This document shows positions 5,274 to 25,655 of a DNA stretch of 64,000 bases, piece after piece (position 1 is the stretch's first letter; every line of letters starts with the position of its first letter). The stretch is from contig JAQUUP010000005.1 of assembly GCA_028693815.1 (NCBI GenBank), positions 104 through 64,103 of the forward strand, written 5' to 3'. Source of the stretch: Candidatus Omnitrophota bacterium. GTDB lineage: Bacteria > Omnitrophota > Gorgyraeia > Zapsychrales > Aceulaceae. The notes under the pieces are model-generated. The model had not been told where the DNA came from and did no database searches. It was given only the letters and a program-made list of their open reading frames with translations. A program made the position numbers and the translations under genes.

Positions 5274-8200
5274 ATGATTGTGTATTTCGAAAAGTCTCAA
5301 AAAAGTCTTGCGTCTAAAATTGTATCTATTTTTATTGCTGTTTGTTTTCTTTTAAGCTCTATCGCGCCTAGCTACGCCCAGAGTCTGTCTGCGCTTCCTG
5401 TGCCAGGGACGATTGTTAGCCCAACACCCGGATTCTTTCCTGTGTTGGTCAGAGCTTTAGAGATCAACCCAGAGAATCCTTTGCAATTTGGCTTTATTGT
5501 AGACAACGGAGACACTGAGTTTCAAGGAGAAGACCTTACCGAAGAAGCCAAGAAGCTGATTCGCTATTTTCTTGCCTGTCTGACAACTCCTGAAGAAGAT
5601 ATGTGGGTCAACCTTTCTCCTTATGAAGAAAACCGTATTGTTTCTGATAATCTCGGCAAAACTCAAATGGGCCGCGACCTTTTAGCTCAAGACTATATTC
5701 TAAAGCAATTGACCGCTTCTCTGATTTATCCAGAGGACGAGCTTGGAAAGAAGTTTTGGGACAAGATCTACAAAACAGTTTATGAGAAGTTCGGTACCAC
5801 AGACATTCCTCTTAATACCTTTAATAAGGTCTGGATTGTCCCAAAGACAGCTAAAGTTTATGAGCATGATAATAGAGTTTTTGTGATTGATAGCAAGCTT
5901 GAAGTTATGATGGAAGAGGATTTCCTCGCGCTATCGCGCTCGCGTGAAATGTTAAAAGTGAAAAGTGAAGCGCACGATTCACGCTTCACGAGCGACGCTT
6001 CACAAAACAAATTGGCCTCAGATATTGTCCGCGAAATCCTTATTCCAGAGATTGAAAAAGAAGTCAATTCTGGCAAAAACTTTGCTAATCTTCGTCAGAT
6101 CTATAATGCTATGATCTTAGCGGCTTGGTACAAGAATAACCTTAAAGAGAGCCTTCTAGGCCAGATCTATGTGGATCAGGGAAAGACCAAGGGTATTGAG
6201 ATTAAAGATACAGATGCCACCCAAAAAATCTACGATCAATACATCGAATCTTTCAAAAAAGGTGTCTACGACTATATAAAGGTAGAGCATGATGCCCAAA
6301 CAGGCAAAAATATCCCAAGAAAATACTTTTCTGGTGGTGCCACGGCTTTTTCTTCAAGCGGCATTCCGTTAAGAGGTATGGTTCAGAATGTTGTGCCAGC
6401 GAGAAGCGATATGGATGCAAATGGTGTCCATGGCCGAAAAGGTGGCGATTTTACAAAAATTGATATTGGGCTTGGTGAGATTGGGGATGTGGAAGGTCAA
6501 TCCAGCTCCGGCATTGGAAAGCCATCAAGAAAAGATATTGCCGAAAGCGTTGAGAAAGGGATAACGTTTGTTCTCGAAGAAATAGATGCCGGAGGAGAAG
6601 TTGATTTATCTGAGACATTGCGTGGAATGGGATTTGCGACATCATCTGATGCGGAGAGCCTGAGATTTTTTTTGGAAAACCGCTGGACGGTTTCTTTGGG
6701 TTCCTGGGAGATGATGGATATTGATCAGACTACTGGTCACATGGTTGTTAATTTAGTAAAGGCTAGTTTTGCCAGCTCGGGTATTCTGACTGTTGATGAT
6801 TTTATGAATGATATCATTTCAATTATTGGATCTGCAATGTCAGATTTAGAAGGAGTGCATCGTATTTATATTTCTCCAAAAGGAAGCGGCTCTGGGTGGA
6901 ATTTCTTATCTGTTGAAGAATTTAAAAAGGTAATGGCAAAAGATTTTTCTGGGGTTGGAAATGTTTTAAGTTTGATGTCTAGCCTTGATGTTGGTTTGCT
7001 ATACGGAAAATCAATTTTTGTTCAATTATCAGAAGGTGAGAATAGATACTTAGCTTCTTATAATGGCAAGAAAATGCCTGGAGATGTAACAATCCAAGAA
7101 GCACTTAACAAAAAAGTTCAAGACCTTAACAATCTTCGCAAGTTGGGAGTTGAAGTGACTCAAACCCCACCCACCGCTGCAGCGATCTCATTGCTAAAAA
7201 CTCCTAGTGATGTTGTAGCATCTGCGGTTGAAGAATATGGCATGTTTCTGCAGAATACTTCAGGAAGATTTGAGGGAGACGATCAAAATACCCCATATCG
7301 TGATACTGATGAAAAAATTCGATGGCCTGAAGGTAAATGGCCTTTGTACATTTTCTTAGGGGATTTAACGGCCAATGGGTTGGGGCTTCGTCTTAATGAC
7401 GAAAAGACAGCTTATGTGGGTGTTCAGTTGGGATCTTATGGAACGTGGACAGATAATTTTCAGGATATTTTCATTCCAGTTGAGATTAAAGTCGTGTCTT
7501 CAGGGCTAAAAACTTATCACGATGTCGTAAGTTATTTAAGTGGGCAAGAAGGGGTAAACTTTGATAATATTTTCGGAAAATTTGGTGACGAGAAGATCCC
7601 TTATAAGGATTGGGGATCTTATAGTTCTCAGTTGCCATCGGAAATCTTTGCGATTGGAAGAGAGGGCTACGTGTTTCAAAAAGGTCCTGATGGGTATGAG
7701 CCAACAGATAGCCCAGGTGATTTCGATGAGCCGGCTGATCCCCTTAAGCAATTGCCAACGGCTACTAGAGCCTCTTCAGACATAAAGACTGATACTAAGC
7801 CTTTTGGAGGTGGAAAAATTTTATTTAGCCGTTTTGATCCTCGAGCAAAGGAAACGGTTCATGAGTTTGGGTTTCCTGGCCATGATCCTGATTGGACGTT
7901 TAAAGAGTCTGGAAACACTGTTTATGACTCTTCTGCTGAGATTATAGATAGAAGAAACGCATTATTAGGAGGAAAAAAATCCAGCTCAAATGTTACCAAT
8001 CGTTTGCAACTCGAGAACGCCATTAGACAATTTATCGTTACAGTTGTCAGAAAAGCATCAATTGATTCAATTAGTCAGATTCATATTGATAAAACACCAG
8101 TAGGAAATGGTGTGGAGCCTGGGGATTTTATATGGATTCAATCTCGTGTCGAGGAAGCTTATGGAGTTTCTGTTGGCGAGGAGTTTTCAATTTTACCAGT

Positions 8201-8900
8201 AAGAAATCTTGTTGATTTTGTTGAGAAAGAAAGCCCGATCCTTATTTCTCAAAGAATCATTGAAGATCCTTCTGTTCAGGTTCGCATGATCGATGCTAAA
8301 AGGCCACTTGATACAGACCAGATTGAAAAATTGGCATTTGGTGGACAGATTACAAGCCTTTATTCTCCTAAAGAGGAAAAGACATTGCATATTTTGGTTC
8401 AAGGAGTTGGAGGGACTCGTGGCGTTGTAAGAGCGTATGTAGAAAACGGGAATACTGTAGACTCTAATGTTACGCTGTATAATCCATCTGAAGACGCAAT
8501 TCTTCTTAGAGGTTTTAGAGTCTTTGAAGAGATTCGTTTTGCTTTAGTGAAAAATGGACTTGGTGATGCGATGATGGGAAAACATTATCCTAATAATCAA
8601 GTTTCGTCAAATACTGGTGGTATTAATCTTGATGCTGGGCTTTTGGATCTTCAAATTGAACGCGATGGAAACGGTATGCCTTTGCCATTTGCGCAACAAC
8701 CGCTTGGAATAATGAATATCCAAGGATTTTCATTTTATATTATGAGTGTCACAAATGTTCCGAGCATGCTTTTGATTTCAGGGTTGGTGCCTAATAATCA
8801 GGATGAGAAAACCGTCTCAGCTGAAAGCACGTTTGAACAAGCGTTGGTTGAAAAGAAGTTCCGATTTGTAGCAGATGACCCACGCAGAATATGTGCTTAA
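5274..8900 (+). CDS. giant secreted protein (1208 aa), paralog 1, with the shared N-terminal module
   Basis: A GAGGAG RBS precedes the ATG at 5274. The product has a signal peptide (MIVYFEKSQKSLASKIVSIFIAVCFLLSSIAPSYAQS). The ORF is uninterrupted. The N-terminal ~370 aa align clearly with the 16017 protein (LPVPG, ENPL, WVNLSPYEENRIV, GRDLLAQDYILKQ, FNKVWIVPK, NKLASDIVREI, NFAxLRQIYNA, PRKYFSGG). Confidence 0.85.
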   Translation: MIVYFEKSQKSLASKIVSIFIAVCFLLSSIAPSYAQSLSALPVPGTIVSPTPGFFPVLVRALEINPENPLQFGFIVDNGDTEFQGEDLTEEAKKLIRYFLACLTTPEEDMWVNLSPYEENRIVSDNLGKTQMGRDLLAQDYILKQLTASLIYPEDELGKKFWDKIYKTVYEKFGTTDIPLNTFNKVWIVPKTAKVYEHDNRVFVIDSKLEVMMEEDFLALSRSREMLKVKSEAHDSRFTSDASQNKLASDIVREILIPEIEKEVNSGKNFANLRQIYNAMILAAWYKNNLKESLLGQIYVDQGKTKGIEIKDTDATQKIYDQYIESFKKGVYDYIKVEHDAQTGKNIPRKYFSGGATAFSSSGIPLRGMVQNVVPARSDMDANGVHGRKGGDFTKIDIGLGEIGDVEGQSSSGIGKPSRKDIAESVEKGITFVLEEIDAGGEVDLSETLRGMGFATSSDAESLRFFLENRWTVSLGSWEMMDIDQTTGHMVVNLVKASFASSGILTVDDFMNDIISIIGSAMSDLEGVHRIYISPKGSGSGWNFLSVEEFKKVMAKDFSGVGNVLSLMSSLDVGLLYGKSIFVQLSEGENRYLASYNGKKMPGDVTIQEALNKKVQDLNNLRKLGVEVTQTPPTAAAISLLKTPSDVVASAVEEYGMFLQNTSGRFEGDDQNTPYRDTDEKIRWPEGKWPLYIFLGDLTANGLGLRLNDEKTAYVGVQLGSYGTWTDNFQDIFIPVEIKVVSSGLKTYHDVVSYLSGQEGVNFDNIFGKFGDEKIPYKDWGSYSSQLPSEIFAIGREGYVFQKGPDGYEPTDSPGDFDEPADPLKQLPTATRASSDIKTDTKPFGGGKILFSRFDPRAKETVHEFGFPGHDPDWTFKESGNTVYDSSAEIIDRRNALLGGKKSSSNVTNRLQLENAIRQFIVTVVRKASIDSISQIHIDKTPVGNGVEPGDFIWIQSRVEEAYGVSVGEEFSILPVRNLVDFVEKESPILISQRIIEDPSVQVRMIDAKRPLDTDQIEKLAFGGQITSLYSPKEEKTLHILVQGVGGTRGVVRAYVENGNTVDSNVTLYNPSEDAILLRGFRVFEEIRFALVKNGLGDAMMGKHYPNNQVSSNTGGINLDAGLLDLQIERDGNGMPLPFAQQPLGIMNIQGFSFYIMSVTNVPSMLLISGLVPNNQDEKTVSAESTFEQALVEKKFRFVADDPRRICA

Positions 8901-8929
8901 CCAAATTCAACCTACGAGGTTGAACGCGG
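8899..8929 (+). repeat. REP-like palindromic repeat, family 1, copy 1
   Basis: AACCAAATTCAACCTACGAGGTTGAACGCGG. It begins at the giant1 stop codon. Confidence 0.85.
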
Positions 8930-9011
8930 CATCATATTAAGCAGGTATTTATTGAATATTTGTTACCCACGAAGAGTTAGTTTTCTAAGCTAACGGGTAG
9001 TAGGTGTAAGA

Positions 9012-9044
9012 GGGGCCCCCGAAAATTCGGGGGCCCTTTTTTTT
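9012..9044 (+). terminator. strong rho-independent terminator
   Basis: GGGGCCCCCG-aaaatt-CGGGGGCCC followed by eight T. It lies downstream of giant1. Confidence 0.85.
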
Positions 9045-9071
9045 GGCTCAACAAGGCAAGTTATGCTAATA

Positions 9072-9104
9072 AACCAAATTCAACCTACGAGGTTGAATGC
9101 GGTT
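9072..9104 (+). repeat. REP-like palindromic repeat, family 1, copy 2
   Basis: AACCAAATTCAACCTACGAGGTTGAATGCGGTT. Confidence 0.85.
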
Positions 9105-9167
9105 ATTCTAAGGTTTTAGCCTAAAAATAAATTTGGCTAGATATCCTTTTATGATATAATGCCATTC

Positions 9168-9473
9168 ATGAGCGAGAAATTAATTCGTATTTATAAGAAA
9201 TTTCATGTTGATGAAGTCAAAGAGCATGTATTGGTTTGTGGTGATTTGTCGGCTAATTGTTCAAAATGCAATGCCGTTGGCATTAAGACTAACGCAGACA
9301 AATGTCCTGAATGTGCAACAAAGTTTAAGTATGTGACCTTCCGAAATGTTAGAGGCAATATGCCAAAGATTCATAAGCTGATTGATGAAAGATCAGATCT
9401 AGTTTTTATTGATTATGATGATTTTAATCGTGCGACAGGATCTTTAAAGATCGAAGGATTATTTAATGACTAA
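9168..9473 (+). CDS. small zinc-ribbon protein (Cys cluster CxxxxxxCxxC...CxxC), hypothetical
   Basis: The ORF is about 100 aa and lies between REP copies 2 and 3. A TATAAT-like box lies upstream. The ORF track starts at 9159, but the Met at 9168 also fits. Confidence 0.55.
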   Translation: MSEKLIRIYKKFHVDEVKEHVLVCGDLSANCSKCNAVGIKTNADKCPECATKFKYVTFRNVRGNMPKIHKLIDERSDLVFIDYDDFNRATGSLKIEGLFND

Positions 9474-9485
9474 ACTGATTCAGGC

Positions 9486-9518
9486 AACCGAATTCAACCT
9501 ACGAGGTTGAACGCGGTT
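9486..9518 (+). repeat. REP-like palindromic repeat, family 1, copy 3
   Basis: AACCGAATTCAACCTACGAGGTTGAACGCGGTT. Confidence 0.85.
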
Positions 9519-9540
9519 AAAAAAGATAATATGATGACAC

Positions 9541-10215
9541 ATGACAACATTACGTAAAAATCCTTTAGTTAAAGGGAAGATTTATCATATTTTTAATCGA
9601 AGCATTGCTAAGTTTGTTATTTTTAATGATGAAAAGGAATTTGCGCGCATGCTTGAAACAGTAAAATATTATCAGTCAAAAGACTGCGGGGACAGTTTGT
9701 CACATTTTATAAAAATGAAAGAGTCCGAAGCTGTTAATCGTCAGAATAAAATAAAAATTAAGTTGCTTTCTGATAAGCTTGTCGATATTATAGCTTTTTG
9801 TTTAATGCCAACCCATGTCCATTTTGTTTTAAAGCAGCTTAAAGATGGTGGTATTTCAATTTTTATGAGCAATATCCAAAATAGCTATACTCGATTCTTT
9901 AATCTTAGACATCAGCGAAAAGGTCCACTCTGGGAAGGAAGATTTAAGAGTGTTTTAGTTGAAGATGATGAGCAGCTGCTTCATTTAACGCGATATGTTC
10001 ATCTTAATCCGGTTACAGCCGGCTTGGTCGAAAAGCCAAAGGATTGGTTTGCGTCCTCTTATAAGCAATATTTAAAACAAGGCGTGGCAGATTTCTCAAT
10101 GTGCAACTTTTCTGATATTTTGGATATTGATTCGGGCAGCTATCAAGAATTTGTTAATGACCAAATTTCCTATCAAAGGGATTTGGCAGGAATTAAACAT
10201 TTAGTTTTTGATTAG
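9541..10215 (+). CDS. IS200/IS605-type Y1 (HUH) tyrosine transposase, REP-associated (RAYT-like)
   Basis: 224 aa. It has the HxH motif (MPTHVHFV) and the catalytic-Tyr region (LWEGRF...LLHLTRYVHLNPV) typical of TnpA_REP/IS200 transposases. Family-1 REPs flank it. Confidence 0.8.
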   Translation: MTTLRKNPLVKGKIYHIFNRSIAKFVIFNDEKEFARMLETVKYYQSKDCGDSLSHFIKMKESEAVNRQNKIKIKLLSDKLVDIIAFCLMPTHVHFVLKQLKDGGISIFMSNIQNSYTRFFNLRHQRKGPLWEGRFKSVLVEDDEQLLHLTRYVHLNPVTAGLVEKPKDWFASSYKQYLKQGVADFSMCNFSDILDIDSGSYQEFVNDQISYQRDLAGIKHLVFD

Positions 10216-10219
10216 AAAG

Positions 10220-10251: not shown

Positions 10252-10268
10252 TAAGTATGGCTTAAAAG

Positions 10269-12266: not shown

Positions 12267-13445
12267 ATGATACAACCTAATAAAAGCGGACATTTTGAGG
12301 AGTTTGGAGGACGCTTTGTTCCTGAGACGTTAATGTCGTTAGTTGTGGATTTAGAAAAGACATTGAATGCTCTTCGAAAAGATAAGAAATTCAAGAAAGA
12401 ATTTGATTTTTATCTTACGAATTATGCAGGCCGGCCAACCAATTTATATTTTGCTTCTCGCTTAAGCGAAAAACTAAAACCATTAAAAGTTTATCTGAAG
12501 CGTGAAGATCTTCTTCATACGGGCGCTCATAAAATAAACAACACTCTTGGGCAGATCTTAGTCGCACGGTCTATGAAAAAAACGCGCATTATTGCCGAGA
12601 CCGGAGCCGGTCAGCATGGAGTGGCTACGGCGACAGCTGCGGCCCTTTTTGGTTTGAAGTGTGATGTGTATATGGGCGCAAAAGATGTTGAGCGTCAGGC
12701 CTTAAACGTTTTTCGAATGAAACTTTTAGGAGCAAATGTTATTCCAGTAACAAGCGGAACGCAAACTCTTAAAGATGCGATGAATGAAGCTATTCGTGAT
12801 TGGGTGACGAATGTTGAAAATACTTTTTATATTATCGGTTCTGTGGCAGGGCCTCATCCGTATCCTACGATGGTGCGTGAATTTCAGAAAATTATTGGTG
12901 TTGAGGCACGTAAGCAATTTTTGGCTAAAGAGAAAAAACTTCCTGATTATTTGCTTGCTTGTGTTGGCGGTGGCTCTAATGCGATGGGACTTTTTTATCC
13001 ATTCTTTGATGATCAAAAAGTGAAGATGATTGGTGTTGAGGCAGCAGGTTTGGGGCTAAATACTGATAAGCATTCTGCTGCTGTTATCAAAGGGGAGATC
13101 GGGGTTTTGCATGGAAGTAAAAGCAAGCTTTTGCAAACGCCTGACGGACAAATTCGAGAAGTTCACTCGATTGCCGCTGGCCTTGATTATCCTGGCGTTG
13201 GCCCTGAGCATGCTTATTATAAGAAAATAGGACGTGCTGAGTATGTTGGTGTTGATGATAAGCAAGCAATTAAGGGATTGAAATTACTTTGTGAAACAGA
13301 GGGTATTATTCCAGCGCTTGAAAGCGCACATGCCATTGGATATTTAGAAAAATTAGCCAAGAAGGTCAAACGTAAGTCAAGTGTGGTTGTTTGTTTGTCT
13401 GGGCGTGGGGATAAGGACGTACACGAGCTCAAGGGAATTATTTGA
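12267..13445 (+). CDS. trpB: tryptophan synthase beta chain
   Basis: 392 aa with the [12 protein letters not shown]-lysine motif and a GGGSNAMG motif. Confidence 0.9.
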
Positions 13446-13447
13446 AG

Positions 13448-13540
13448 AAACCCCACGTCGCTGAGAATCGCCCCTGGGGTAATAGTCAAGAATCAAGACA
13501 ATTGAAACCCCGATGCCCTTCGGGCACGGGGTAAATTCGC
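13448..13540 (+). repeat. double-hairpin dispersed repeat, family 2, copy A
   Basis: CCCCA..TGGGG hairpin, then TAATAGTCAAGAATCAAGACAATTGAAA, then CCCCGATGCCC-ttcg-GGGCACGGGG, then TAAATTCG. This architecture recurs at 30139, 56795 and 43462. Confidence 0.8.
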
Positions 13541-13542
13541 GC

Positions 13543-13590
13543 TAGATGACTTGACGCTCCTTTTAGTCGCGCAAGTCATGCGCTCATTTA
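13543..13590 (+). other. imperfect hairpin (GATGACTTGaCGC...GCGCAAGTCATGC)
   Basis: An 11-bp stem with one bulged base and an 11-nt loop. Confidence 0.5.
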
Positions 13591-13664
13591 AAGATGTTCA
13601 TGAGTTGAGGGAAATAATTTGAGAAAATTAATGTCGCTAAAAGATGTTTCTAGGGATTGTGAAA

Positions 13665-13697
13665 AACCGCGTTTAACCCCGCGGGTTAAACGCGGTT
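13665..13697. repeat. perfect 33-nt palindrome AACCGCGTTTAACC-ccgcg-GGTTAAACGCGGTT
   Basis: It is self-complementary and shares the AACGCGGTT tail with the family-1 REPs. Confidence 0.8.
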
Positions 13698-13728
13698 ACT
13701 AGCGCTTATGTAAAATTGGAGCTCACTT

Positions 13729-14523
13729 ATGAATCGTATTGATCAAAAATTTAAAAGTTTAAGTAAGCAGAAGAAAAAAGCGTTTATTGCTTTTATTACG
13801 GCAGGAGATCCAAACTTAAAAACAACCGAAGAGTTGGTGTTGGCTTTTGAAAAATCTGGAGTTGATATCGTTGAGCTTGGGGTGCCGTTTTCTGATCCTT
13901 TGGCAGATGGGCCAACCATTCAAGAAGCTTCTTATCGGGCGCTTAAAAATAAGGTCAGCATTATAAAAATTCTTGATTCGGTTAAAAGGATTCGAAAAGT
14001 TTCTGAGATTCCAATTTGTTTAATGACGTATTATAATCCTGTATTTCATTTTGGGGATACAAAATTTGTCGCGCAGGCAAAAGCGGCAGGTGTTGATGGT
14101 GTTATTATTCCTGATCTTCCGCCGGAGGAGGCCTCTGAATTGATTCAAGAGGCGCGAAAAAAGGATTTTTCAACAATCTTCTTTTTATCACCAACAACAA
14201 AAAAAGAGCGTATCAGCATTATCGAAAAAGCTTCGAGTGGGTTTATTTATTATGTTTCGATCGCAGGGGTGACTGGCGCACGCAAGGCTTTGCCTAAGAA
14301 TTTAAAAGAAAATTTAAAGAAAATAAAGCGTTCAATCAAAAAGCCACTATGCGTTGGGTTTGGCATTTCTAACGCACAACAAGCAAAAGAAATTTCAAAG
14401 TGCTGTGATGGTGTTATTGTCGGAAGCGCGATCATCAAAGAGATTATAAAGAATAAGGGCAAAAAGAATTTAGTTTCAAATGTTACCCGTTTTGTGAGTA
14501 GCCTTTCTGCAGCTATTAAATAG
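13729..14523 (+). CDS. trpA: tryptophan synthase alpha chain
   Basis: 264 aa with an IVELGVPFSDPLADGPTIQ motif. Confidence 0.9.
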   Translation: MNRIDQKFKSLSKQKKKAFIAFITAGDPNLKTTEELVLAFEKSGVDIVELGVPFSDPLADGPTIQEASYRALKNKVSIIKILDSVKRIRKVSEIPICLMTYYNPVFHFGDTKFVAQAKAAGVDGVIIPDLPPEEASELIQEARKKDFSTIFFLSPTTKKERISIIEKASSGFIYYVSIAGVTGARKALPKNLKENLKKIKRSIKKPLCVGFGISNAQQAKEISKCCDGVIVGSAIIKEIIKNKGKKNLVSNVTRFVSSLSAAIK

Positions 14524-15844: not shown

Positions 15845-15963
15845 ATCTTTAGACTTTTTAAAGTGTTTTTTTCCTAAAAATGTTGACTAATCCATAAGTT
15901 ATCCATCTGCAATGACTTACATCTCAAGGAAAACTCTCAAAAAGTAGTTTTTTTTGATTCATA

Positions 15964-15972
15964 TGCTATACT
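15964..15972 (+). promoter_or_regulatory. extended -10 element TGCTATACT upstream of giant2
   Basis: It matches the ATGCTATAYT motif at 4777 and 5113, with TTGATT just upstream. Confidence 0.35.
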
Positions 15973-16016: not shown

Positions 16017-19000
16017 ATGGTTCAGAAAATTAAATCAAAAAGACTAAGATCCTTTTTTAGGGGCGCGTCTATTTTCGTGCTTGTGTGCTTTGTGCAGACT
16101 TGCATTGTGCCTTTTGGCATTCCGCAGGCTCATGCGCAAGGGCTTTTGAGTCTTCCTGTGCCTGGCGCTAGTGTGTCTTTGACGCCTGCATTTTCTCCTG
16201 CTACTTTGATTGGTCTAAAAATTCATCCTGAAAATCCATTAAGAGTTGATTTTGTGGTAGATAGCGGAGATTTTGGGCTTTCCAATCAAGCATTTAAGAG
16301 CGAGACCGAAAAATTGATTAAGTATTTCTTGGCAGCACTCACAATTCCAGAAAAAGATCTCTGGGTCAATCTTTCTCCCTATGAGGAAAATCGAATCGTT
16401 GCAGACAATTTTGCTCAGACAGAAATGGGCAGAGACTTGCTTGCCCAGGATTATATCTTAAAGCAGATTACGGCGTCATTGATTTATCCAGACGACGAAC
16501 TTGGAAAAGAGTTTTGGAAACGCATCTATCAAAAGGCTTATGAAGAGTATGGAACAGCGAATATCCCTGTTGATGCGTTTAATAAGGTATGGATTGTGCC
16601 CAAAAAGGCTGTTGTTTATGAAAATGGGGATAGGGTTTTTGTGGCGGAATCGTCTCTATCCGTTATGGTGGAGCAAGACTATTTAGCCATGACAAAGCAT
16701 AGTCAAGGTAGCTCCGACGTTTCAGTCGGAGTCCCGACATCCGACGTTGGTTATAAATCAGGTAAGGAAGTCGGATCGTCGGGAAAGGTGATGCTGGAAA
16801 CGGACTATGTTGCTTTGCAAGCAAAGCAACAAGTATCTAGTGAAGAGCATCTAGTATATGGTGATAATCAGCAACCAAATACCATATCCCAAATACCAAA
16901 TACGGATAATAAATTAGCTTCCGACATTGTCCGCGAAATCATCATTCCTGCCCTTGAAAAGGAAGTCAATCAGGGCAAAAACTTTGCCCAGTTACGTCAA
17001 ATCTATAATGCCGTTATTTTAGCCGCATGGTTTAAAACAAATCTAAAAAATGCTTTGCTCAACGAAGTTTATTCTGATCAATCAAAAGTTTCAGGTGTTG
17101 ACGTTGAAGACAAAAAGATTACGGATAAAATTTATCAAAGATATCTAGAGGCTTTCAAAAAAGGTGTATGTAATTTTGTCAAAGTCGAATACGACGAGAA
17201 TGAGCATAAAAATGTTCCGAGAAAATATTTCTCAGGGGGAACGGACTTGGCTCTTTCTTCTAGCGGAATTTTAGAGAAGACGAATCAATCGTCTTCGGTC
17301 ATTCCAAGCGGGAAGTGTGCTCTTGTTGAGCAGAATTTTAGTGTTTTTTCTTCTACTGTTGTTGAGAAAATTAAGATTAAAGAGGAAGAGCCGTTTTCTG
17401 ATATTTTAAAGGATGTATCTGATAATGAGCTTTTTATTTTAAAAGATATTCTTCGTAATCTTAATGTTCATTTTGCAGAAAGTGAATCAGATTTGATTAA
17501 CGTTGAAAAGTTTTCTTTTAAAAATATTATTCTTAAGCTTAAGAAAATTCTGGATAAACATGGTGATGAAAAGAATAAACTAGATCTCCAAGATCCTAGA
17601 TCTGAAGCATTGATTGGAAGCATTAAGCTTCAGGATGATGGCATTATTTCTATTGTGCACCCGATGTTTACAACTAGTGGTGTTCATGTTGAAAATTATC
17701 CTATTGTTGTTTTTGCACAAAATATAGCCGCTGCAAATTATGAGCAAGTACGGATTCGTCATTGGATCAATTTTTTTAGAGAGCACGATAAGAATTTAGA
17801 TATAGCTATTAAAGATGGAAGATTTGGTACAATAATAAAATTTTGGATTGAAGGCAGCGATGCTCTTGGTTTAAAGAGGCCAAAAGTTGTTGCCAAGCGA
17901 AAAGAAGCATATCGAGCAAAGGTATTAGAATTTAAACAGATAGGGGCCTCTGGCAGAAATGGTTCGGGATCAAAGAATTTTAATGCTTTTCAGAGTAATG
18001 GAAAGCGGGATATCGATTTTGAGTACGATGATGAATTTGTTGTTAACTCTATTTTAGACATTTCTCCACAAGAACTTGGCAAAGTTTCTCGTGAACAATT
18101 GATTCAAAAGCTTGCTTCTTTAATGGCTATGTTAGCGGGAAAAGGTAGTCAGGAGATGGAGCTTTCAACATCAAAGGACAAAGAGCCTTTGTGGCTAGAT
18201 TTTCGAACGGAATCAGCTATTGAGAGGAATTTTTCATCATTTGAACTTTTTCTTGAAGAAGTTTTTGGGCAGGAAGGAGACAAGGAAAAGATTTCTCCTT
18301 ACAAAGCTTACTTTTTTTCAAAAGGACATAGAAAAAATGGTTCTAATGGTAAAAGTTTCTTTACTCCTCGAAAAATTGTTTTAACAATTGATAGAAAGCT
18401 CTTAAAGAATTTTATTATGAAATATAAAGAAAAACATGCTGGAGAAGGTAACGAGTCTGACCGCGTCTATATAGATGAAGATAATTTGAGAAAATATTAT
18501 ATTCTTTCGCTCTGGCTTGATCGAATGATTGAGCTTTTTGAGAAAGAAAGAGTTGTTGAGCGTTATGGTCGTATTGTTGTTGATAAAGAAAAGTTTGTTG
18601 GCGGTCGAGCTTATTCGGAAGACTTTAAATCTTTTGTTGAATTAAAGTCTGAAAAGAATATTTTTATTAATCTGGATGGAACAATTGCTGTTTATGATAG
18701 AGAAAGCGATCAGAAAGGTTATCGTTTTTATGATGATGCCGATAAGCTTTATGATGAGCTTAAAACTTTAAAGGACAATGGATTTAATATTATTCTTTGG
18801 AGTTCAAATTATGAGTGGTTTATTCGTCATAATTTTGTTCGAGAGTCTAGACATAAAAAATGGATAGACCTCTTTAGTTTTATAATCACTCAGGAAAATT
18901 ATCGTGCACCAACAGATGTGGAGCTATCTGAAACTTATTTATCAGAAGAGTTTGCGGATGCTAAAAAACTTTATGGAATTTTTGACTCTTTTAAGGATGT

Positions 19001-22000
19001 CTCTATGTTCGGTCCTTTAAACCGTTTAATCTTAAGGTCAGAACCAATTTATTCGGAGCAGCGAACAGCTATAGAATCAAGGGTTGGTGATAGCACTTGT
19101 GTGATTGGTTATCGTGGAGAGGGAATTGATGGTATGGCCCAAAGAATCTTAAGTGAGGTTTTAACTGAGGCAGAAAAGACTCAGATAGAAAAAGCAAAAA
19201 AAGAGAAATTAGAAAAAATTGAGAAGGAAAAGGCTGAGCGAGAGCGAGTGGAGAAGGCGAGATTAGAGAAAATTGTGAAAGAAAAGGAGCAGCAAGCGAA
19301 GATCGCTGCAGAAAAGAAAGCTCAACGAGATGCAAAAAAGAAAGAAAGAGAAGAAAAAGAGCTAAAAATCAGAGCTTTTTCAAAGGATTATATAAAAGAG
19401 GCAGCAGCTGCAGAAATAATTTTAGAGAACATACTTCATAAGTACCCTCAGATGATGTTTGCGATTAGACTTTTTTCAAATGTTTATGAAAAAGCAGTAG
19501 GATTAGAGGAAAGTGATGACAATAATCAAATTGTAAGCGTGATTTCTGCTTTTTTTGCGATGCAAATAAAACGTCTTGCTTATAGGTCAGGAAAAACTTT
19601 AGATGAATATTTAGAGATCATATCTGGCAATGTCATTGACTCAGAAGGAAAAGTGACGCAACGAGAGGAAGTTGAAGAAATCAAGATTCTTTTGAGAGAT
19701 ATTTTAATTCATGAACTAATTAATGATGAGACGGATGAGTTAATGATTGAAAAGAAAGAAAAGGAATCAATGAGTGGTGACTTGATAATTAAAAAGATGC
19801 TAGACAATGGGATTCCGAAAGCTTTGGGAACTTCAGCGATAAATATTGAAGGATTATTAAGCGCATCTCAGGGAAGCGGTCAGGAAAAGAAAGTATCGCT
19901 GAACAAACAAGCAGCTCAAGCTGTCTCTTCGCTTCTGGATCAAATTTTTGATGATAAGTTTGATTTAGATGGCATAGAAAATCAGGAAAAACTTAAGAAG
20001 GAGATGGACCGCATTGGCTTGTTGATTTTAAGAGATTCGCAGCGAGATATATCTTCTAAAATAAAACATTGGGCGAAAGAGTTTCAAGGGTTTTCACAGG
20101 AAACAATTTTAAGTCGGTGGGCGAAATATAAAGAATCACAATTAAAGAATAAAAAAGATCTTTTGAAGTTTCATGTAACTCTTGCTGATGCGCAAAAAGG
20201 GTATTTGACGATTGAAGTAGTGCTTAAGCTTATCGAGCAGATGCAAGATATTTATAAAAAACTTGATGCAAAAGAAAGAAAAGAATTTTCTTTTCAAGAA
20301 TGGATTGATCTTTGGGATATCAAAATTGATTCTTTTGTTGATAATCTTTTTGATTGTTATCGTTTGGCTGATGGGACTTTTTATTTTTCTAAATTGCCAA
20401 ATTCGCTGCATCCATATTTTGTTAAAACTGGTAATAATTTATATGAATTAAAAGAAGCTTCTCATGGTAATCAGGTTAATTATTTTGACATTTGGTCCAA
20501 GTGGGTTTTTCCGGTTTTTCATAATTTTGAATCTGTTCCTGAAGCAAAAGTCCCTGGCATGCTCAATGCTGATGTGACGTTTTTCATGAATGATCCGAAA
20601 AGATTGGACAGTACTTTTTATACTTATAATGTGTTTCGCATGTTTGAGAAATTTCTAGCGAATATTTCAGTTGATAAGTTTTTTATTTTTAATGTTGATC
20701 ATGGAAAAGAAAAGCTTCCAGCACAAGCAACTGGTATTGTGCGTTATAAGAAAGATGGGACGAGGGATTTGGTGGGTCAGACAAAGGATTTTAAAGATAA
20801 AATAATAAAACTGTTATCAGAGAAGAGATTTTTACAAAACGCGGATTTAAATGGCTTACTGCTTGCTCTTTATGTTCTAGCTGACGAGACGGATGTTGAT
20901 CTTTTGCAATGGTATGGACAATATAAAATTGTCGAAGATCTCTTTGAGGGGGACAGGAGTGGAAATGGCCTTAGTTCTGAGAATAATATCGCACGTGCAC
21001 GTCATTTTGATCGCGGTGTACGCACGTTAGCATTTTATATCTTAGATAAGCTTGCTGGTGGTTTTGAAAAGTTTACAGAAGATTCCTTTGTTGACATAAA
21101 TAAGATTCAGAGCTCGGATGTTGTTATTTTTAAGGAGATAATTCTTCCGTCCGAATATTATAATCAGACAAAGTTCCCTGTTCTTGAGATGGTGGAGGGT
21201 GGATATATAACTTCTGGTGTAGCTGCTCAGATGATACAAATAGAATCTATGTTTTCTCTTGAGCCGCGTGCGTTTAATATTCTTAAGTTAATTCACGGCT
21301 TAGGGCAATCGCTTATTATGGAACCATCTCTTGATCGTAGCGTTTATGTTTTGGGTGATCAAATTCGGGCTGCAAGCAAAGGGTTTCATCCTGCTCATTT
21401 TGCTGAAGATGCACACCGTTACGTGGATTCTGACGGAGTTGTTTTTACACTAGAAGAGGTTGCGCAGAAGAAAAAAACAAAAGAAGAATTCGTAGCAACT
21501 AATACTGATTCAATGGATCTGATCGATTTATCATTAGATGAATATGCTAGGGTTTTTGAGAATTTAACAAGCAAGATTGATTTATCTGTTTTGATTAATT
21601 TGACATTAGAGAAGTATGCTGAGACGCTTACTATGGCTGTAAATTTCTCAGTGCAAAGATATTTGCCTTTGATCAAGAAAGTTATTGAAATACGTAATGA
21701 ATATTTTGAACGATATCAACAATATCCTGCGATTTCTATTGTCAGTAATCGTGATCAAGTTCCAAATGATGCTTTTATTGAGCCAAAAGAAATGAACAAT
21801 AGGGATATCGCAAATAAAATTTTAGGTACAGGACTTCCTGACATTATCCCTCTTAATGGTCAATTGGTCGAAAATTTAGCCGTAGAGCATATTGAGAGCT
21901 TGTTATCTTCTGGGGATGACACACAAGTTTTAAAGCCAGTTGATTCGAATGATAATCGACTTTTTCCTGCGCTGGCCGCAGATCAACTACTCCAAATTTT

Positions 22001-25000
22001 TGGGATCATCAATGCTTCAAGCAAATCAATGGCAATGATTAATCATATTGCTCGTCAGTTTCAGACGAAAGAAGATCTTGAAGATCTTTTGGCTTGTGTT
22101 TTGGGTAATTTTTCTTCCAAGCTTTCTTATCGATCTTCTTTGACCGCTAATTTTATTGTACAAAAAGGTTTTGCCACAAATGAGCAGATGTCAATGGCCT
22201 TTGGGCCGGCCTATCGTTATGACTCCTTTAATCCGTATTATTCTTTAGACAATATTCATTTCTTTGATATTCCAGAATACGGAGTTCCTCAGAATATTAA
22301 TTTTTCATATTATTTTGATTCAAATGAAAAGGCAATTCTTTATCAAATAGCGGAGAATAAGGGTGGGCATGAATTTGTCCGCTATGAATATTCTGGATCT
22401 AAGAGGATTAGTAAAGATTTTGTCCGAGATAGAAAAGAAGATCTTAATTCTGATATTGCAGAGGTTTTAATTGCTTTGGATCGTTTGGCAAATAAAACTC
22501 TTGATTTTGCAGATAAGAAATATGGGGATTTTAAATTAGATGTAGAAAAAGAATTTGGAGCAAAGATTGATGATAGCAATAAATATTTGTTTCTTGAAAA
22601 ATTGCTTGATGCTGTGCTTGATGCTTTGCAAGAAACAGAAATATCTAATGATGGTGAGTTTCTTGACATGCTTTTAAAGGTAGAAAGGGGTGTTGTTTTA
22701 GCAAAAACATTAATTGAGACACGAAATAGTATGGACGAGCTATATCCGTTTGCTTTAGAAAATCGGGTCGAGAATTTTGAATATATTGAGAAGCGTATTG
22801 AAGAATCTAAAGAAGATCAAAAAATAAATATGTATATTGAGCAGAGATTTGCTGGTGCGATTTCAGAGAATTTTCGCGCTTTGATTGAGGGGCTTCTCCA
22901 GTCTAGTCCAAGGATTAAGGTGGATCTTTATATTTTGAGTGATGATCCAAATTATGATTTTGTTCCAAGGAATGGAAATCAAATTGTCGATCCTTATCAA
23001 GGATTTACGACTACGGTTGTTCGCAGTTTAGATGAGCTTGAAGTAATCAAAAAACAAGATTGTCTTCATGTTGGATTGAATTATGATGATTTTGAAAATC
23101 CTCAAGACGAAAATATTTTTGTTGTGGATCTTGCGCATAATGTTCAAGGGGAACTTGATTTTTCACTGAAACGCCAAGAATTATCAACGAGACTCAATCT
23201 TGATCTAGATGATCCTTCTGGATCTATTCCGATCAATCCAGCTTTATTGAAACGAAAAAAGATTCGTAACGAAATTTGGTCTTTAGATGATCTCCTGAGA
23301 CGCAGAGGCGCATTTTTAGATAAAATTTTAACTTCTAAGCAGTTGGAAGTATTGCAATCGAGCGTAGATGCGTTGCCGGACGGCAAAAGCGTTTTTAATG
23401 TTAACATGTCTGTTTTGTCATATATGTCACCAAGTAATCTAGAAAAGTTTCTAGAAGAGATGAGTATCTTAAGATCAGCTATTCTTGATGATGATTTGAA
23501 TGATATTTTTATTAGCGCTGGAGAGGAGCACGGTAAGCAGATTGTTCTTCTTTGGGAGGATTCAGGGTACGTAGCCGAGAGGCTTGATCTTAAGAAGTTA
23601 ACAGATGACATTGGGATTACAGTTATTGACCAAGCTGGAGAGGTTTATCCCGGATTAAAAGAAAAAAGAATTCCTGTAACAATTATTCGCTGTCATGAGT
23701 TGAGTGAAAAACAAAGAAAAGAACTCTTTTCTGAATTGGCTGGAACGGCGAAAATAGTAGAAAAAGATTTGGGTAATGGAAAAGGAAAGAGTAGATTCTT
23801 TGTTGATTTCCCGATTTATATTTCTGGTATGTCTTCGAAATTTTTTAATTTATTATCCACAGGGTCGATGTTTATTCACGATAATTTTGTGATCAAGACT
23901 GGTGAAATGAAATCTTATCTTCAAAATATTCTTAGAAGGGCTTTTGCTTTTGAATCGAAGGATCGGAATAATGGCCCAGCAATTCATAAAGCAGAAATCC
24001 TTGTGCCTGATATGATCATGGGAGGCCAGGCAAAGAATTCTAGGATAGTGATTCAGAAAGGATCTCATAACAACGAAATAAAGACTGCTGCCACATTTGG
24101 GCCAATGTTTGCTTTGGGGAAATATTCTGATCTTGTTGGTAGAACACTGCATTCGCAATCGATTGCTGAAACTTTTTCTAATTTTTCAGCTGTTGAAGAT
24201 TTGCTCTGCGGGATTGCTGGAAGGATTATTGAAGCAGAGGATGTTCCTAATAAATCATCTGTTTTTATTAAATCAAAAGCAGATTCTGATCAATTGGGCA
24301 GTGCAGCACAACCCAAAGAACAGCCTTCGTCTTCAACTAAGAAATTTTTTCCCCCGAAAGAACATTCTCTTTATGCAGGGTTTATGTGGTTGCAACAAAA
24401 TAGTCCGGAATATTTTAATCTTTTTATCAAAAAAGCAAAGAATCCTAATATGGTTATTAAGGATAAAAGTTTTATTGCTGCTGTTACGGATTGCGGGTTG
24501 TGGAACGGCAAGGATGGAGAAGCCGGAGATATTTTGCCAGAAGCAAGGCAATTTGTATTGGACAGCATTAAGGCGTCCGAAGATGAGGCAGGTAACTTTG
24601 ATGAAGGGGCCGATGTATCAAGTAGTGCCATTAGCGATCATTTTAAGGTTGATGATCAAGGACATATAAAATATGTTGATGAAAATTTTAAAGAAAATCC
24701 TACTATCAAACTTGATTTTGAAATGATTGGTTTTCGTCATATGATTACGTTTGCGAATGAACAAGGAATTCTGCAAGGGGGGCCTAGTAACGGTGAAGAT
24801 AATAAGCTAAGTGAAGAAGGAAAAAGGCAGGCCACAGAGGATTTAGCTCCAGCACTTTATGCAATGCTTAAAGAAAAAATTGAGCAAGGAAAGAAAATAG
24901 TGATTGCTCTTAGTGAGGCAGACAGGACGATTGAAAGTATTCAGCCCTTTATTAATTTTGTTAAGGAAACACTCGGCATTGATTTAGAGGTTAAGGTCTA

Positions 25001-25655
25001 TCCTCAGTCCAACGAAAGATCTTTTGGCAACTATGAAGGGAAAACATTGAGCGAGTTTCAGGAAAGTGATTCGGAGACTTACATAAAGGTTATTAAAAAG
25101 TTTGATTCTACAGCTAAAATAGGAGGAGGCGAAAGCGATATCGATGCTCTCAGCCGTTCTTATGATTTTCTTCAAGCGCTGAAAAAAGAGTATGATAACA
25201 CGGACACAACCGTTGTCCTTGTAAATCATGGAATGTTTCTTCTTGCTTGCTTGGCTAATTTGGGACACAATCGGGTTGCGGATGAAAACGAAAATATTAA
25301 TTTCTGGAAATTTGATGGTACATTTCCTGGTCATGGCGAAATTATTAATCTTTCTGACCCTAAGAGCGATTATGAAAAAAAATCTGGCATAATTTCTGCA
25401 TATGATCCGAAAGCAAGCACAGGCGGTATTGATTTTAGTTCTGATAAACTTGATTTGGAAACTAGAGGCCAGGGGATTGATTTTACGATTCCAGATGAAT
25501 TGCGTAATATCGATTGGGCGGACGTTGATGGGCTTGTTCCTATGATTATTGAGATTATTCCATTGGTCAATTTCCAGGGATTTGTGCGGGGAGAAGATGA
25601 GGCTGAGTTTCTTAAGGAACAAGATTTAGCTTATTTTGATTTGACAAAGTCATAA
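16017..25655 (+). CDS. giant secreted multidomain protein (3212 aa), paralog 2
   Basis: The 9.6-kb ORF is uninterrupted and the product has a signal peptide. The N-terminal module is homologous to giant1. A HAD-like motif (IFINLDGT...ILWSSN) lies at about 18655-18900. A K/E-rich coiled coil lies at about 19170-19380. A histidine-phosphatase-like region lies at about 24700-25330 (RHM...LSEEGKRQA ... VVLVNHG). Confidence 0.85.
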   Translation: MVQKIKSKRLRSFFRGASIFVLVCFVQTCIVPFGIPQAHAQGLLSLPVPGASVSLTPAFSPATLIGLKIHPENPLRVDFVVDSGDFGLSNQAFKSETEKLIKYFLAALTIPEKDLWVNLSPYEENRIVADNFAQTEMGRDLLAQDYILKQITASLIYPDDELGKEFWKRIYQKAYEEYGTANIPVDAFNKVWIVPKKAVVYENGDRVFVAESSLSVMVEQDYLAMTKHSQGSSDVSVGVPTSDVGYKSGKEVGSSGKVMLETDYVALQAKQQVSSEEHLVYGDNQQPNTISQIPNTDNKLASDIVREIIIPALEKEVNQGKNFAQLRQIYNAVILAAWFKTNLKNALLNEVYSDQSKVSGVDVEDKKITDKIYQRYLEAFKKGVCNFVKVEYDENEHKNVPRKYFSGGTDLALSSSGILEKTNQSSSVIPSGKCALVEQNFSVFSSTVVEKIKIKEEEPFSDILKDVSDNELFILKDILRNLNVHFAESESDLINVEKFSFKNIILKLKKILDKHGDEKNKLDLQDPRSEALIGSIKLQDDGIISIVHPMFTTSGVHVENYPIVVFAQNIAAANYEQVRIRHWINFFREHDKNLDIAIKDGRFGTIIKFWIEGSDALGLKRPKVVAKRKEAYRAKVLEFKQIGASGRNGSGSKNFNAFQSNGKRDIDFEYDDEFVVNSILDISPQELGKVSREQLIQKLASLMAMLAGKGSQEMELSTSKDKEPLWLDFRTESAIERNFSSFELFLEEVFGQEGDKEKISPYKAYFFSKGHRKNGSNGKSFFTPRKIVLTIDRKLLKNFIMKYKEKHAGEGNESDRVYIDEDNLRKYYILSLWLDRMIELFEKERVVERYGRIVVDKEKFVGGRAYSEDFKSFVELKSEKNIFINLDGTIAVYDRESDQKGYRFYDDADKLYDELKTLKDNGFNIILWSSNYEWFIRHNFVRESRHKKWIDLFSFIITQENYRAPTDVELSETYLSEEFADAKKLYGIFDSFKDVSMFGPLNRLILRSEPIYSEQRTAIESRVGDSTCVIGYRGEGIDGMAQRILSEVLTEAEKTQIEKAKKEKLEKIEKEKAERERVEKARLEKIVKEKEQQAKIAAEKKAQRDAKKKEREEKELKIRAFSKDYIKEAAAAEIILENILHKYPQMMFAIRLFSNVYEKAVGLEESDDNNQIVSVISAFFAMQIKRLAYRSGKTLDEYLEIISGNVIDSEGKVTQREEVEEIKILLRDILIHELINDETDELMIEKKEKESMSGDLIIKKMLDNGIPKALGTSAINIEGLLSASQGSGQEKKVSLNKQAAQAVSSLLDQIFDDKFDLDGIENQEKLKKEMDRIGLLILRDSQRDISSKIKHWAKEFQGFSQETILSRWAKYKESQLKNKKDLLKFHVTLADAQKGYLTIEVVLKLIEQMQDIYKKLDAKERKEFSFQEWIDLWDIKIDSFVDNLFDCYRLADGTFYFSKLPNSLHPYFVKTGNNLYELKEASHGNQVNYFDIWSKWVFPVFHNFESVPEAKVPGMLNADVTFFMNDPKRLDSTFYTYNVFRMFEKFLANISVDKFFIFNVDHGKEKLPAQATGIVRYKKDGTRDLVGQTKDFKDKIIKLLSEKRFLQNADLNGLLLALYVLADETDVDLLQWYGQYKIVEDLFEGDRSGNGLSSENNIARARHFDRGVRTLAFYILDKLAGGFEKFTEDSFVDINKIQSSDVVIFKEIILPSEYYNQTKFPVLEMVEGGYITSGVAAQMIQIESMFSLEPRAFNILKLIHGLGQSLIMEPSLDRSVYVLGDQIRAASKGFHPAHFAEDAHRYVDSDGVVFTLEEVAQKKKTKEEFVATNTDSMDLIDLSLDEYARVFENLTSKIDLSVLINLTLEKYAETLTMAVNFSVQRYLPLIKKVIEIRNEYFERYQQYPAISIVSNRDQVPNDAFIEPKEMNNRDIANKILGTGLPDIIPLNGQLVENLAVEHIESLLSSGDDTQVLKPVDSNDNRLFPALAADQLLQIFGIINASSKSMAMINHIARQFQTKEDLEDLLACVLGNFSSKLSYRSSLTANFIVQKGFATNEQMSMAFGPAYRYDSFNPYYSLDNIHFFDIPEYGVPQNINFSYYFDSNEKAILYQIAENKGGHEFVRYEYSGSKRISKDFVRDRKEDLNSDIAEVLIALDRLANKTLDFADKKYGDFKLDVEKEFGAKIDDSNKYLFLEKLLDAVLDALQETEISNDGEFLDMLLKVERGVVLAKTLIETRNSMDELYPFALENRVENFEYIEKRIEESKEDQKINMYIEQRFAGAISENFRALIEGLLQSSPRIKVDLYILSDDPNYDFVPRNGNQIVDPYQGFTTTVVRSLDELEVIKKQDCLHVGLNYDDFENPQDENIFVVDLAHNVQGELDFSLKRQELSTRLNLDLDDPSGSIPINPALLKRKKIRNEIWSLDDLLRRRGAFLDKILTSKQLEVLQSSVDALPDGKSVFNVNMSVLSYMSPSNLEKFLEEMSILRSAILDDDLNDIFISAGEEHGKQIVLLWEDSGYVAERLDLKKLTDDIGITVIDQAGEVYPGLKEKRIPVTIIRCHELSEKQRKELFSELAGTAKIVEKDLGNGKGKSRFFVDFPIYISGMSSKFFNLLSTGSMFIHDNFVIKTGEMKSYLQNILRRAFAFESKDRNNGPAIHKAEILVPDMIMGGQAKNSRIVIQKGSHNNEIKTAATFGPMFALGKYSDLVGRTLHSQSIAETFSNFSAVEDLLCGIAGRIIEAEDVPNKSSVFIKSKADSDQLGSAAQPKEQPSSSTKKFFPPKEHSLYAGFMWLQQNSPEYFNLFIKKAKNPNMVIKDKSFIAAVTDCGLWNGKDGEAGDILPEARQFVLDSIKASEDEAGNFDEGADVSSSAISDHFKVDDQGHIKYVDENFKENPTIKLDFEMIGFRHMITFANEQGILQGGPSNGEDNKLSEEGKRQATEDLAPALYAMLKEKIEQGKKIVIALSEADRTIESIQPFINFVKETLGIDLEVKVYPQSNERSFGNYEGKTLSEFQESDSETYIKVIKKFDSTAKIGGGESDIDALSRSYDFLQALKKEYDNTDTTVVLVNHGMFLLACLANLGHNRVADENENINFWKFDGTFPGHGEIINLSDPKSDYEKKSGIISAYDPKASTGGIDFSSDKLDLETRGQGIDFTIPDELRNIDWADVDGLVPMIIEIIPLVNFQGFVRGEDEAEFLKEQDLAYFDLTKS

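Follow-up and report, generated by a model that had tools for sequence, protein, structure and literature searches.

Conserved ends joined to variable remainders are known from several groups of bacterial proteins. The cargo proteins of the type IX secretion system (T9SS) of the Bacteroidota are restricted to one phylum and comprise many unrelated exported proteins, which share a Sec signal and a short conserved beta-rich C-terminal domain (CTD) of about 80 amino acids (aa). MARTX toxins have constant ends, made of long repeat regions, around a modular variable centre of enzyme domains that act in the cytoplasm, and closely related toxins can differ by the gain or loss of domains. PE/PPE proteins and the trafficking domains of polymorphic toxins combine a conserved N-terminal domain with a variable and sometimes enzymatic remainder, and occur as dozens of paralogues per genome within one lineage. 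Here we describe a family with comparable features from Candidatus Omnitrophota, a phylum of widespread, uncultured and ultra-small bacteria that presumably live attached to other cells or as their predators. It is represented by two genes, giant1 and giant2, in a window of 64,000 nucleotides (nt), the whole stretch of DNA that was analysed (GenBank assembly GCA_028693815.1, contig JAQUUP010000005.1, positions 104 to 64,103). Both products have a signal peptide with an A-x-A↓Q cleavage site, a conserved N-terminal module (N-module) directly after it, and a conserved C-terminal module (C-module) no more than about 80 aa from the C-terminus. On balance we favor the view that they are Sec-exported "bracketed-cargo" proteins, in which the constant ends would sort, anchor or assemble the protein and the middle would be a swappable payload.

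The likeness to T9SS cargo and MARTX toxins is one of analogy and not of membership, because no defining feature of either system was found. The T9SS CTD, PEP-CTERM-type and other named C-terminal sorting signals gave no NCBIfam or Pfam match at E <=0.1; unlike T9SS cargo, moreover, the family adds an N-module of 320 aa and has no T9SS-like genes nearby. In contrast to MARTX toxins, its members are without RTX/glycine-rich repeats and without a cysteine protease domain, carry a Sec signal where the toxins use type I secretion, and have single globular modules as their ends. The conserved domains of the PE/PPE and polymorphic-toxin proteins differ in being short (~100-180 aa), in lacking a Sec signal, in using type VII or other systems and in having no conserved C-terminal cap, and homology between them and the family was not found. 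Pfam searches of both proteins and of their 450-aa chunks gave no match to an autotransporter barrel, to the GGA(I/L/V)/FxxN repeats of Chlamydia Pmp proteins or to RTX repeats; the single GGID-FNxxN of the C-module resembles the Pmp motif only superficially.

Giant proteins have been described from the Omnitrophota themselves. Two preprints (10.1101/2023.11.21.568195; 10.64898/2026.06.07.730766) and the paper of Seymour et al. describe them as having at least 10,000 aa; they are rich in transmembrane helices and contain SecA-DEAD, dockerin, TSP3 or HEAT domains. The Archaeovorins, the Dockerin-type and the multi-enzyme giants share with the present family the phylum, great length, a mostly unannotated sequence, a signal peptide, and domains of metabolic, HEAT, NUDIX and HAD type. 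Giant1 and giant2 differ from the Archaeovorins and Dockerin-type giants in having only 1208 and 3212 aa, no SecA-DEAD, HEAT, dockerin or TSP3 domain by Pfam, and only one segment clearly of transmembrane grade, which is the signal peptide. Term searches in the preprints and in the paper of Seymour et al. yielded nothing on either module. Motif strings of the modules were not found in the literature searched, within which the family appears to be undescribed.

Two Window Genes with Common Ends

An initial annotation of the window had listed giant1 at 5274-8900 and giant2 at 16017-25655, and the ORF listing has both open reading frames (ORFs) as given, on the + strand. The window has a low GC content (~37%) and a strong positive GC skew, with nearly all genes on the + strand. 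An AGGAG lies 8 nt upstream of the giant1 ATG, and the giant1 product is identical to MDD3374606.1, annotated as a hypothetical protein. The giant2 product is recorded at NCBI as a "phosphoglycerate mutase family protein" of 3187 aa whose start is at 16092 and not at 16017; with a start 25 codons later, most of the signal peptide is lost from the annotation. The longer start is kept in P0266, an orthologue of giant2.

The signal peptides claimed for both proteins can be recognized by reading: in each, a basic n-region leads into a hydrophobic core, and an A-x-A↓Q site comes after it. They are predicted to occupy aa 1-35 of giant1 (5274-5378, + strand; cleavage at SYA↓Q between A35 and Q36, from the sequence and family statistics) and aa 1-40 of giant2 (16017-16136, + strand; cleavage at AHA↓Q between A40 and Q41, with the start kept in P0266). 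Beyond the signal peptide, neither protein has a segment that is clearly of transmembrane grade in its hydrophobicity.

The N-module, the conserved head of the family, spans aa 36-358 of giant1 (5379-6347, + strand; E 1e-160 to the family profile) and aa 41-413 of giant2 (16137-17255, + strand; from BLASTP against giant1 and the family profile). The N-terminal paralogy reported earlier is borne out by BLASTP, which aligns giant1 aa 18-364 with giant2 aa 18-418 (211/401 identities, 53%, E 2e-124), and every motif quoted for it is found in the two proteins. Compared with giant1 in this alignment, giant2 has about 54 extra aa in its N-module, a lineage-specific insertion around aa 233-296 in a variable loop. 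The insertion is missing from P0266 and maps to a loop of low predicted local distance difference test (pLDDT) score in the AlphaFold 2 (AF2) model.

The initial annotation also held that the two proteins diverge completely beyond this module, which is wrong: they have in common a C-terminal family module of about 65 aa. It lies at aa 1112-1181 of giant1 (8607-8816, + strand; 67.4 bits), with a further 27 aa before the stop at 8900, and at aa 3133-3195 of giant2 (25413-25601, + strand; 52.7 bits), where it aligns with the C-terminus of P0266 and is followed by a 17-aa acidic tail. Both scores are from a leave-out profile, built without the window proteins. At aa 1166-1181 of giant1 (8769-8816) both prolines of the PVIINITP core are gone (the sequence reads SFYIMSVTNV), and the remainder of the module scores well. 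No window ORF other than giant1 and giant2 has an N- or C-module.

Family Size, Range and Architecture

A search of other genomes for the N-module had been proposed as a check, and it places the two genes in a family of thousands. The giant1 N-module finds at least 1390 proteins at about 50-60% identity. Among matches with an organism name, 41 of 43 are from Omnitrophota and the other two bear the labels of archaeal metagenome-assembled genomes (MAGs). Scanning GTDB with one genome per species gave at least 582 loci, and among the best 80 of these, 5-6 loci come from single MAGs. The C-module profile, run against 1.84 billion cluster representatives (50% identity), matches 5785 proteins, 2313 of them at E <=1e-10. 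In all 150 matches listed the C-module is at the C-terminus, and the proteins reach 5808 aa. Longer C-module matches that have a signal peptide nearly all carry the N-module, and most of those without it look fragmentary. The family thus defined by its N- and C-modules is very large and unnamed, and is apparently confined to the Omnitrophota. An origin in phages was considered and rejected, as only three family loci occur in 2.9 million viral contigs.

The architecture is regular. At the GTDB loci, 43 of the 47 family ORFs that are complete contain both modules. In 99 two-module proteins the middle has 113-5358 aa (median 1040), and the tail past the C-module 0-78 aa (median 13). For 223 members with complete N-termini, a hydrophobic core is present in 221, x-x-[AGS]-Q in 206 and Ala at -1 in 193; at -3 the residue is small or aliphatic, and the median number of Lys/Arg in the n-region is four. 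These statistics fit cleavage by type I signal peptidase, which would leave an N-terminal Gln. Family genes often stand in tandem: at least two N-module ORFs (two or three within 13 kb) are found at 21 of 79 loci, and at 16 further loci the gene is closely preceded by the C-module end of another member. Arrays of this kind are seen at loci L005, L006, L042/L053, L061, L073 and others.

Sequence and Predicted Structure of the End Modules

Whether the N-module belongs to a well-known family had been raised as a possible refutation of the initial interpretation; no Pfam or NCBIfam model and no PDB match was found. The AF2 model of the giant1 N-module has a pLDDT of 79.9 and a predicted template modelling score (pTM) of 0.76, and contains long beta-hairpins. 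The module (~320 aa) is predicted to be an alpha/beta fold without a known relative.

The C-module, of about 65 aa, has the consensus GGIDFN..LDL...G.G....L....Q......I.G..PVIINITP..N...LLG. It is beta-rich, and only a few residues separate it from the C-terminus. For P0085, a natural family member of 549 aa, AF2 predicts that the conserved strand of the C-module (aa 492-503) is a 12-residue beta-strand (pLDDT ~83) with disordered linkers on either side. The N-modules have a mean identity of about 57%, and the distance matrices of the N- and C-modules correlate (Mantel r 0.48, a value that 0 of 999 permutations reach).

Variable Middles and Their Cargo

Between the conserved ends the middles change rapidly. 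Only 49 of 4278 protein pairs (~1%) have any similarity between their middles. Even where the N-modules are more than 65% identical, which is the case for 218 pairs, such similarity is limited to 21 of them. BLASTP with the giant1 and giant2 middles finds no match among about 340 family members. That of giant1 (aa 359-1111; 6348-8606, + strand) is an orphan, also without a Pfam or NCBIfam match, and many other middles, including that of the member at locus L001, are likewise without a recognizable domain.

Where domains can be recognized, they are varied. Pfam searches of 32 complete members found 42 families at E <=1e-5. The enzymes among these include full-length phosphoglycerate kinase (PGK; 2.7e-107), enolase, triosephosphate isomerase (TIM), class V FBPase, PGM, UDPGP, PPDK_N and RmlD/epimerase; the other domains include PP2C, NUDIX and receiver domains, and ankyrin, HEAT and NHL repeats. 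PGK-like segments are present in at least six members, and fusions to NUDIX, PGK, PGI and PGM occur among the matches of the N-module search. In one predicted-exported protein (L032:4253-11326, aa 1660-2355), full-length PGK is followed directly by enolase. The phosphatase-type domains of giant2 had been called unusual for a secreted protein; within this family they are not, since members carry many cytoplasm-type enzymes. Because the family habitually carries such enzymes, especially those of lower glycolysis, the phosphoglycerate-mutase (PGAM)-type domain of giant2 is no oddity.

Two further observations concern the middles. In the member L005:5890-10575 the enolase C-terminal TIM-barrel domain (aa 936-1250) precedes the N-terminal domain (aa 1269-1363), an order that reflects either a permutation or two partial copies. 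The motif SS[PSG][VILMA] is enriched about five-fold in family middles (130 observed, 24.6 expected) and is limited to 42 of 93 members. Its preferred position is beside modules, with the forms SSPV/SSPI/SSPL in other members and SSSGI in the window proteins, where it stands at aa 361, 411, 501 and 742 of giant1 (window ~6354-7500) and at aa 415, 425 and 2868 of giant2. It may be a linker, a processing site or a glycosylation site.

Domains of Giant2 and Its Orthologue

Pfam and NCBIfam searches of the whole window proteins and of their 450-aa chunks gave only His_Phos_1 and weak HAD matches, all in giant2. The histidine-phosphatase domain claimed by the initial annotation is clear: His_Phos_1 (PF00300) matches with E 5.5e-15 for the whole protein and 1.4e-16 for the segment, at 56-61 bits against a cut-off of 21.7. 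The domain spans aa 2907-3083 (24735-25265, + strand). Its catalytic residues, assigned from the known family signature and not from a structure, can be read directly as R2907, H2908, N2914, R2970, E3000 and H3071. The RHG-type motif is R2907-H2908-M-I-T-F-A-N2914, with Met in place of Gly, and H3071-G follows further on. The subfamily is indicated only by sub-threshold NCBIfam equivalogs (RNase H/acid phosphatase, alpha-ribazole phosphatase), and a PDB search with the sequence of the segment gave no match at E 1e-3. Judged by these residues, giant2 apparently has an active histidine-phosphatase / phosphoglycerate-mutase-type domain, placed just before the C-module.

Of the HAD-like block reported earlier, the strings IFINLDGT (aa 883) and ILWSSN (aa 926) are real, but all matches of hidden Markov models to the segment (aa 881-1011; 18657-19049, + strand) are below threshold: NCBIfam HAD-IIIC with E 6e-4 (20.6 bits, threshold 35.75), and Pfam Hydrolase_3 with E 0.037 (14.2 against 20.9 bits), HAD_2 with 0.079 (13.5 against 23.8) and HAD_PNKP with 0.13 (12.9 against 27.6). 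A HAD-like fold is plausible, since four related models match one stretch. A PDB sequence search with the segment gave no usable match, and a homologue search no match at all. Motif I reads N-L-D-G-T (885), with Asn at the position of the nucleophilic Asp, so that the DxD pattern is absent. The same Asn is present in P0266, and therefore is no sequencing error. In a register taken from weak alignments, WSS (aa 928-930) and K993 are candidates for motifs II and III, and the acidic-pair position of motif IV reads R-S (LILRSEP). The assignment, which is tentative, draws on the order of the motifs, which P0266 keeps, and on the conservation of NLDGT in this single orthologue; a HAD-like domain with these residues would probably be inactive. 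The long K/E-rich coiled coil proposed for giant2 is shorter than had been stated. A K/E-rich stretch is present, but it covers only about 70 aa (1050-1120) and is a lineage-specific insertion that is mostly a gap in P0266; as a K/E/R-rich helical stretch it is placed at aa 1050-1121 (19164-19379, + strand), with 59% K+E+R over 80 aa.

A search of 5.8 billion proteins with the giant2 middle (2474 aa) returned only giant2 itself and one orthologue, P0266, which comes from an independent assembly. The two proteins are collinear over aa 1-2741 of giant2 and again at the C-module, which is common to both. Identity is 52% over aa 1-1238, the HAD-like block included, and 23% over aa 1350-2741. P0266 is without the N-module insertion, without most of the K/E stretch and without the entire His_Phos domain. 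The comparison thus indicates that domains are gained or lost within a stable frame, as they are between closely related MARTX toxins.

The collinearity also bears on an artefactual origin of the observations, in which the 9.6-kb ORF would be an assembly chimera or the N-module a known adhesin or stalk domain. The His_Phos segment (aa ~2742-3127), which has no counterpart in the sole orthologue, would fit such an origin; since P0266 lacks it, the junction is supported by this assembly alone. For most of the ORF a chimera is made unlikely by the collinear orthologue from an independent assembly, which agrees with giant2 in its start, N-module, HAD-like block and C-module. The ORF is also recorded at NCBI, on a contig of 81 kb; neither GC content nor GC skew changes along the gene; homologues with this build and lengths from 1000 to more than 5000 aa number in the hundreds; and the N-module matches no known domain family. 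We therefore regard an artefact as highly improbable.

A c-di-GMP Riboswitch Upstream of Giant1

The leader of giant1 contains a full-length cyclic di-GMP (c-di-GMP)-I riboswitch aptamer (RF01051) at 4794-4945 on the + strand, with a 69-nt insertion in one hairpin. The Rfam covariance model matches over positions 1-87 of 87, with 65.4 bits (gathering threshold 35) and E 1.5e-10. Homologous aptamers lie upstream of family genes at three other loci, L001, L013 and L032. A closing stem pairs 4793-4806 with 4986-5000 in both minimum-free-energy and centroid folds, and has compensatory changes at the three loci. Its 3' strand is followed by a U-tract (together 4986-5006, + strand), and the two features would form a terminator-like expression platform.

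The initial annotation placed both genes just downstream of extended -10 boxes of the form ATGCTATAYT. The window has three such boxes, at 4777, 5113 and 15963, where 0.33 would be expected. Each lies upstream of one of the two genes, but the first would drive the riboswitch and not giant1 directly. This box, ATGCTATATT, belongs to a promoter-like site read from its motifs, P1 (TTGTTA-17-TATATT, including an extended -10 TG; 4758-4786, + strand), and a similar extended -10 lies about 7 nt before the riboswitch at the three other loci. Another ATGCTATATT box is part of a like site, P2 (TTGAAA-16-TATATT with TG; 5095-5122, + strand), and lies 152 nt upstream of the giant1 start codon; a second box matching P2 is also present at L001. 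The giant2 start is preceded at 45 nt by the extended -10-like box ATGCTATACT (15963-15972, + strand). For the family in general, a TGnTAnAnT box within 300 nt is found at only 21 of 78 loci, which is uninformative as to a shared upstream motif.

In other bacteria the c-di-GMP switch controls surface and secreted proteins, for example through riboswitches of Vibrio cholerae gbpA and of adhesin and protease genes of Clostridioides difficile. Giant1 is similar in that a GEMM-I aptamer and a terminator-like platform lie in the leader of a gene for a large protein with a signal peptide; it is different in having a second promoter-like site in between and a 69-nt insertion in the aptamer, for which ligand binding is a prediction. 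We infer that the riboswitch links at least the giant1 lineage to the c-di-GMP lifestyle switch, with a direction of control that is likewise conjectural. It offers a testable regulatory input to a family gene.

Possible Roles of the Ends and the Payload

How the parts may work together can be outlined as follows. The cleavable signal peptide (A-x-A↓Q) would send the protein through Sec, presumably taking its bulk past the inner membrane. After export, both constant ends would be recognized by conserved machinery of the cell envelope, or by each other, and this recognition would serve sorting, anchoring or assembly. The middle, unrelated between members, would be an exchangeable payload, which in giant2 would include the histidine-phosphatase / PGAM-type domain and the HAD-like domain, and in giant1 would be orphan sequence. 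A more far-reaching proposal, which we put forward tentatively and consider doubtful, is that the modules define an undescribed sorting, display or delivery system specific to the Omnitrophota that takes cytoplasm-type enzymes and repeat scaffolds out of the cytoplasm. The ends would be its address and docking parts, possibly binding each other, and the payload would be swapped rapidly between paralogues and species.

If the proteins are exported in this way, the family is a strong candidate for the interface of Omnitrophota with other cells. The two domain profiles, the A-x-A↓Q cleavage rule and the candidate linker motif are sequence handles with which payload catalogues can be made from any metagenome. 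It may also be asked whether metabolic reconstructions of the phylum count exported glycolytic copies as cytoplasmic steps, and what role complete glycolytic enzymes would have outside the cell.

Several observations weigh against the view of sorted and exported payloads. Complete glycolytic enzymes behind a signal peptide are the main difficulty for all export models, and the topology that we assume may be wrong, because PGK, enolase, TIM and other such enzymes need cytoplasmic substrates. Known C-terminal sorting signals end in a transmembrane segment and a basic tail, which the C-module does not have; in the tails past it, acidic residues outnumber basic ones (915 to 561). The module is absent from 4 of the 47 complete members and from several short ones (e.g. 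P0002 and P0009), and therefore is not obligatory. No conserved neighbour, such as a transporter or a sortase-like enzyme, occurs in 79 family loci, so that no partner machinery is identified. As for the regulatory link, control of giant1 by the riboswitch is not certain, since P2 lies between the two.

The proteins may instead act inside other cells. As carriers of prey- or host-directed effectors, similar to MARTX or polymorphic toxins, they would use their ends as a translocation device and their middles in the cytoplasm of the attached cell. Cytoplasm-type cargo, including ankyrin, HEAT, PP2C, NUDIX and receiver domains, would suit this function; payload turns over extremely fast at conserved loci, as conflict predicts; Omnitrophota have been described as host-dependent or predatory (PMC10066038; PMC12583861); and the five-fold enriched SS[PSG][VILMA] between modules could be a processing site. 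Against it, Pfam finds neither pore-forming repeats nor an autoprocessing protease domain in the two proteins, the 79 loci have no immunity-like neighbours, and full-length PGK and enolase of a housekeeping kind (E ~1e-107) are odd effectors. We consider this explanation unlikely. An assembly at the cell's own surface is also conceivable, in which the conserved hydrophobic C-module strand docks on the next (or its own) N-module in donor-strand style, and different paralogues co-assemble into a polymer or lattice, a fibre or coat with varied payloads on display. It draws on the far greater conservation of both ends than of the middle, and on their co-variation, although common descent alone can give co-variation. 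AF2 sets the P0085 strand 492-503 confidently despite its disordered flanks, the N-module has long beta-hairpins, and there are many paralogues per genome, often in tandem. Members without a C-module, and the giant1 C-module without both conserved prolines, speak against such docking, and we consider a self-assembling surface polymer to be less likely still.

The glycolytic cargo itself suggests a metabolic role, in which the ends are scaffold or tether domains and not sorting signals, and the proteins form extracytoplasmic or membrane-tethered metabolic scaffolds, with the enzymes kept at the membrane or within a periplasm-like compartment that is enlarged. Enzymes of lower glycolysis and of sugar-nucleotide metabolism recur (PGK in at least six members, enolase, TIM, FBPase, PGM, PGI, UDPGP and the PGAM-type domain of giant2), PGK and enolase directly adjoin at L032, and a 2026 preprint reports that giant proteins of Omnitrophota which associate with the membrane have multi-enzyme metabolic content (10.64898/2026.06.07.730766). 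From the positive-inside n-region and the cleavage site A-x-A↓Q, however, most of the protein is predicted to lie outside the cytoplasm and so apart from ATP/ADP and the intermediates of glycolysis, and most middles, including those of giant1 and the L001 member, have no enzyme domain. Metabolic scaffolding therefore seems to us improbable. Export with the two ends as sorting, anchoring or assembly parts is thus the reading that we retain.

Gene Neighbourhood

Giant1 and its riboswitch lie within a split set of trp genes (window 987-4714 and 12267-14523). A trpG-like, a trpD-like, a trpC-like gene and trpF are followed by a gene for a PolB-type 3'-5' exonuclease, the riboswitch and giant1; past giant1 come an IS200-like transposase, an M20 peptidase and a DUF3108 protein, and only then trpB and trpA. 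The riboswitch-bearing family genes at L001, L013 and L032 also follow trpG-D-C-F, as giant1 does, and their middles are unrelated to that of giant1. Among the 79 loci, the search for conserved neighbours from outside the family gave only a receiver-domain protein (8 loci) and trp genes (4 loci). The transposase is of the IS200-like Y1 type (Pfam Y1_Tnp, E 4.4e-9), and its ORF (9541-10215) begins 640 nt downstream of giant1. The remaining neighbours in the window are housekeeping genes.

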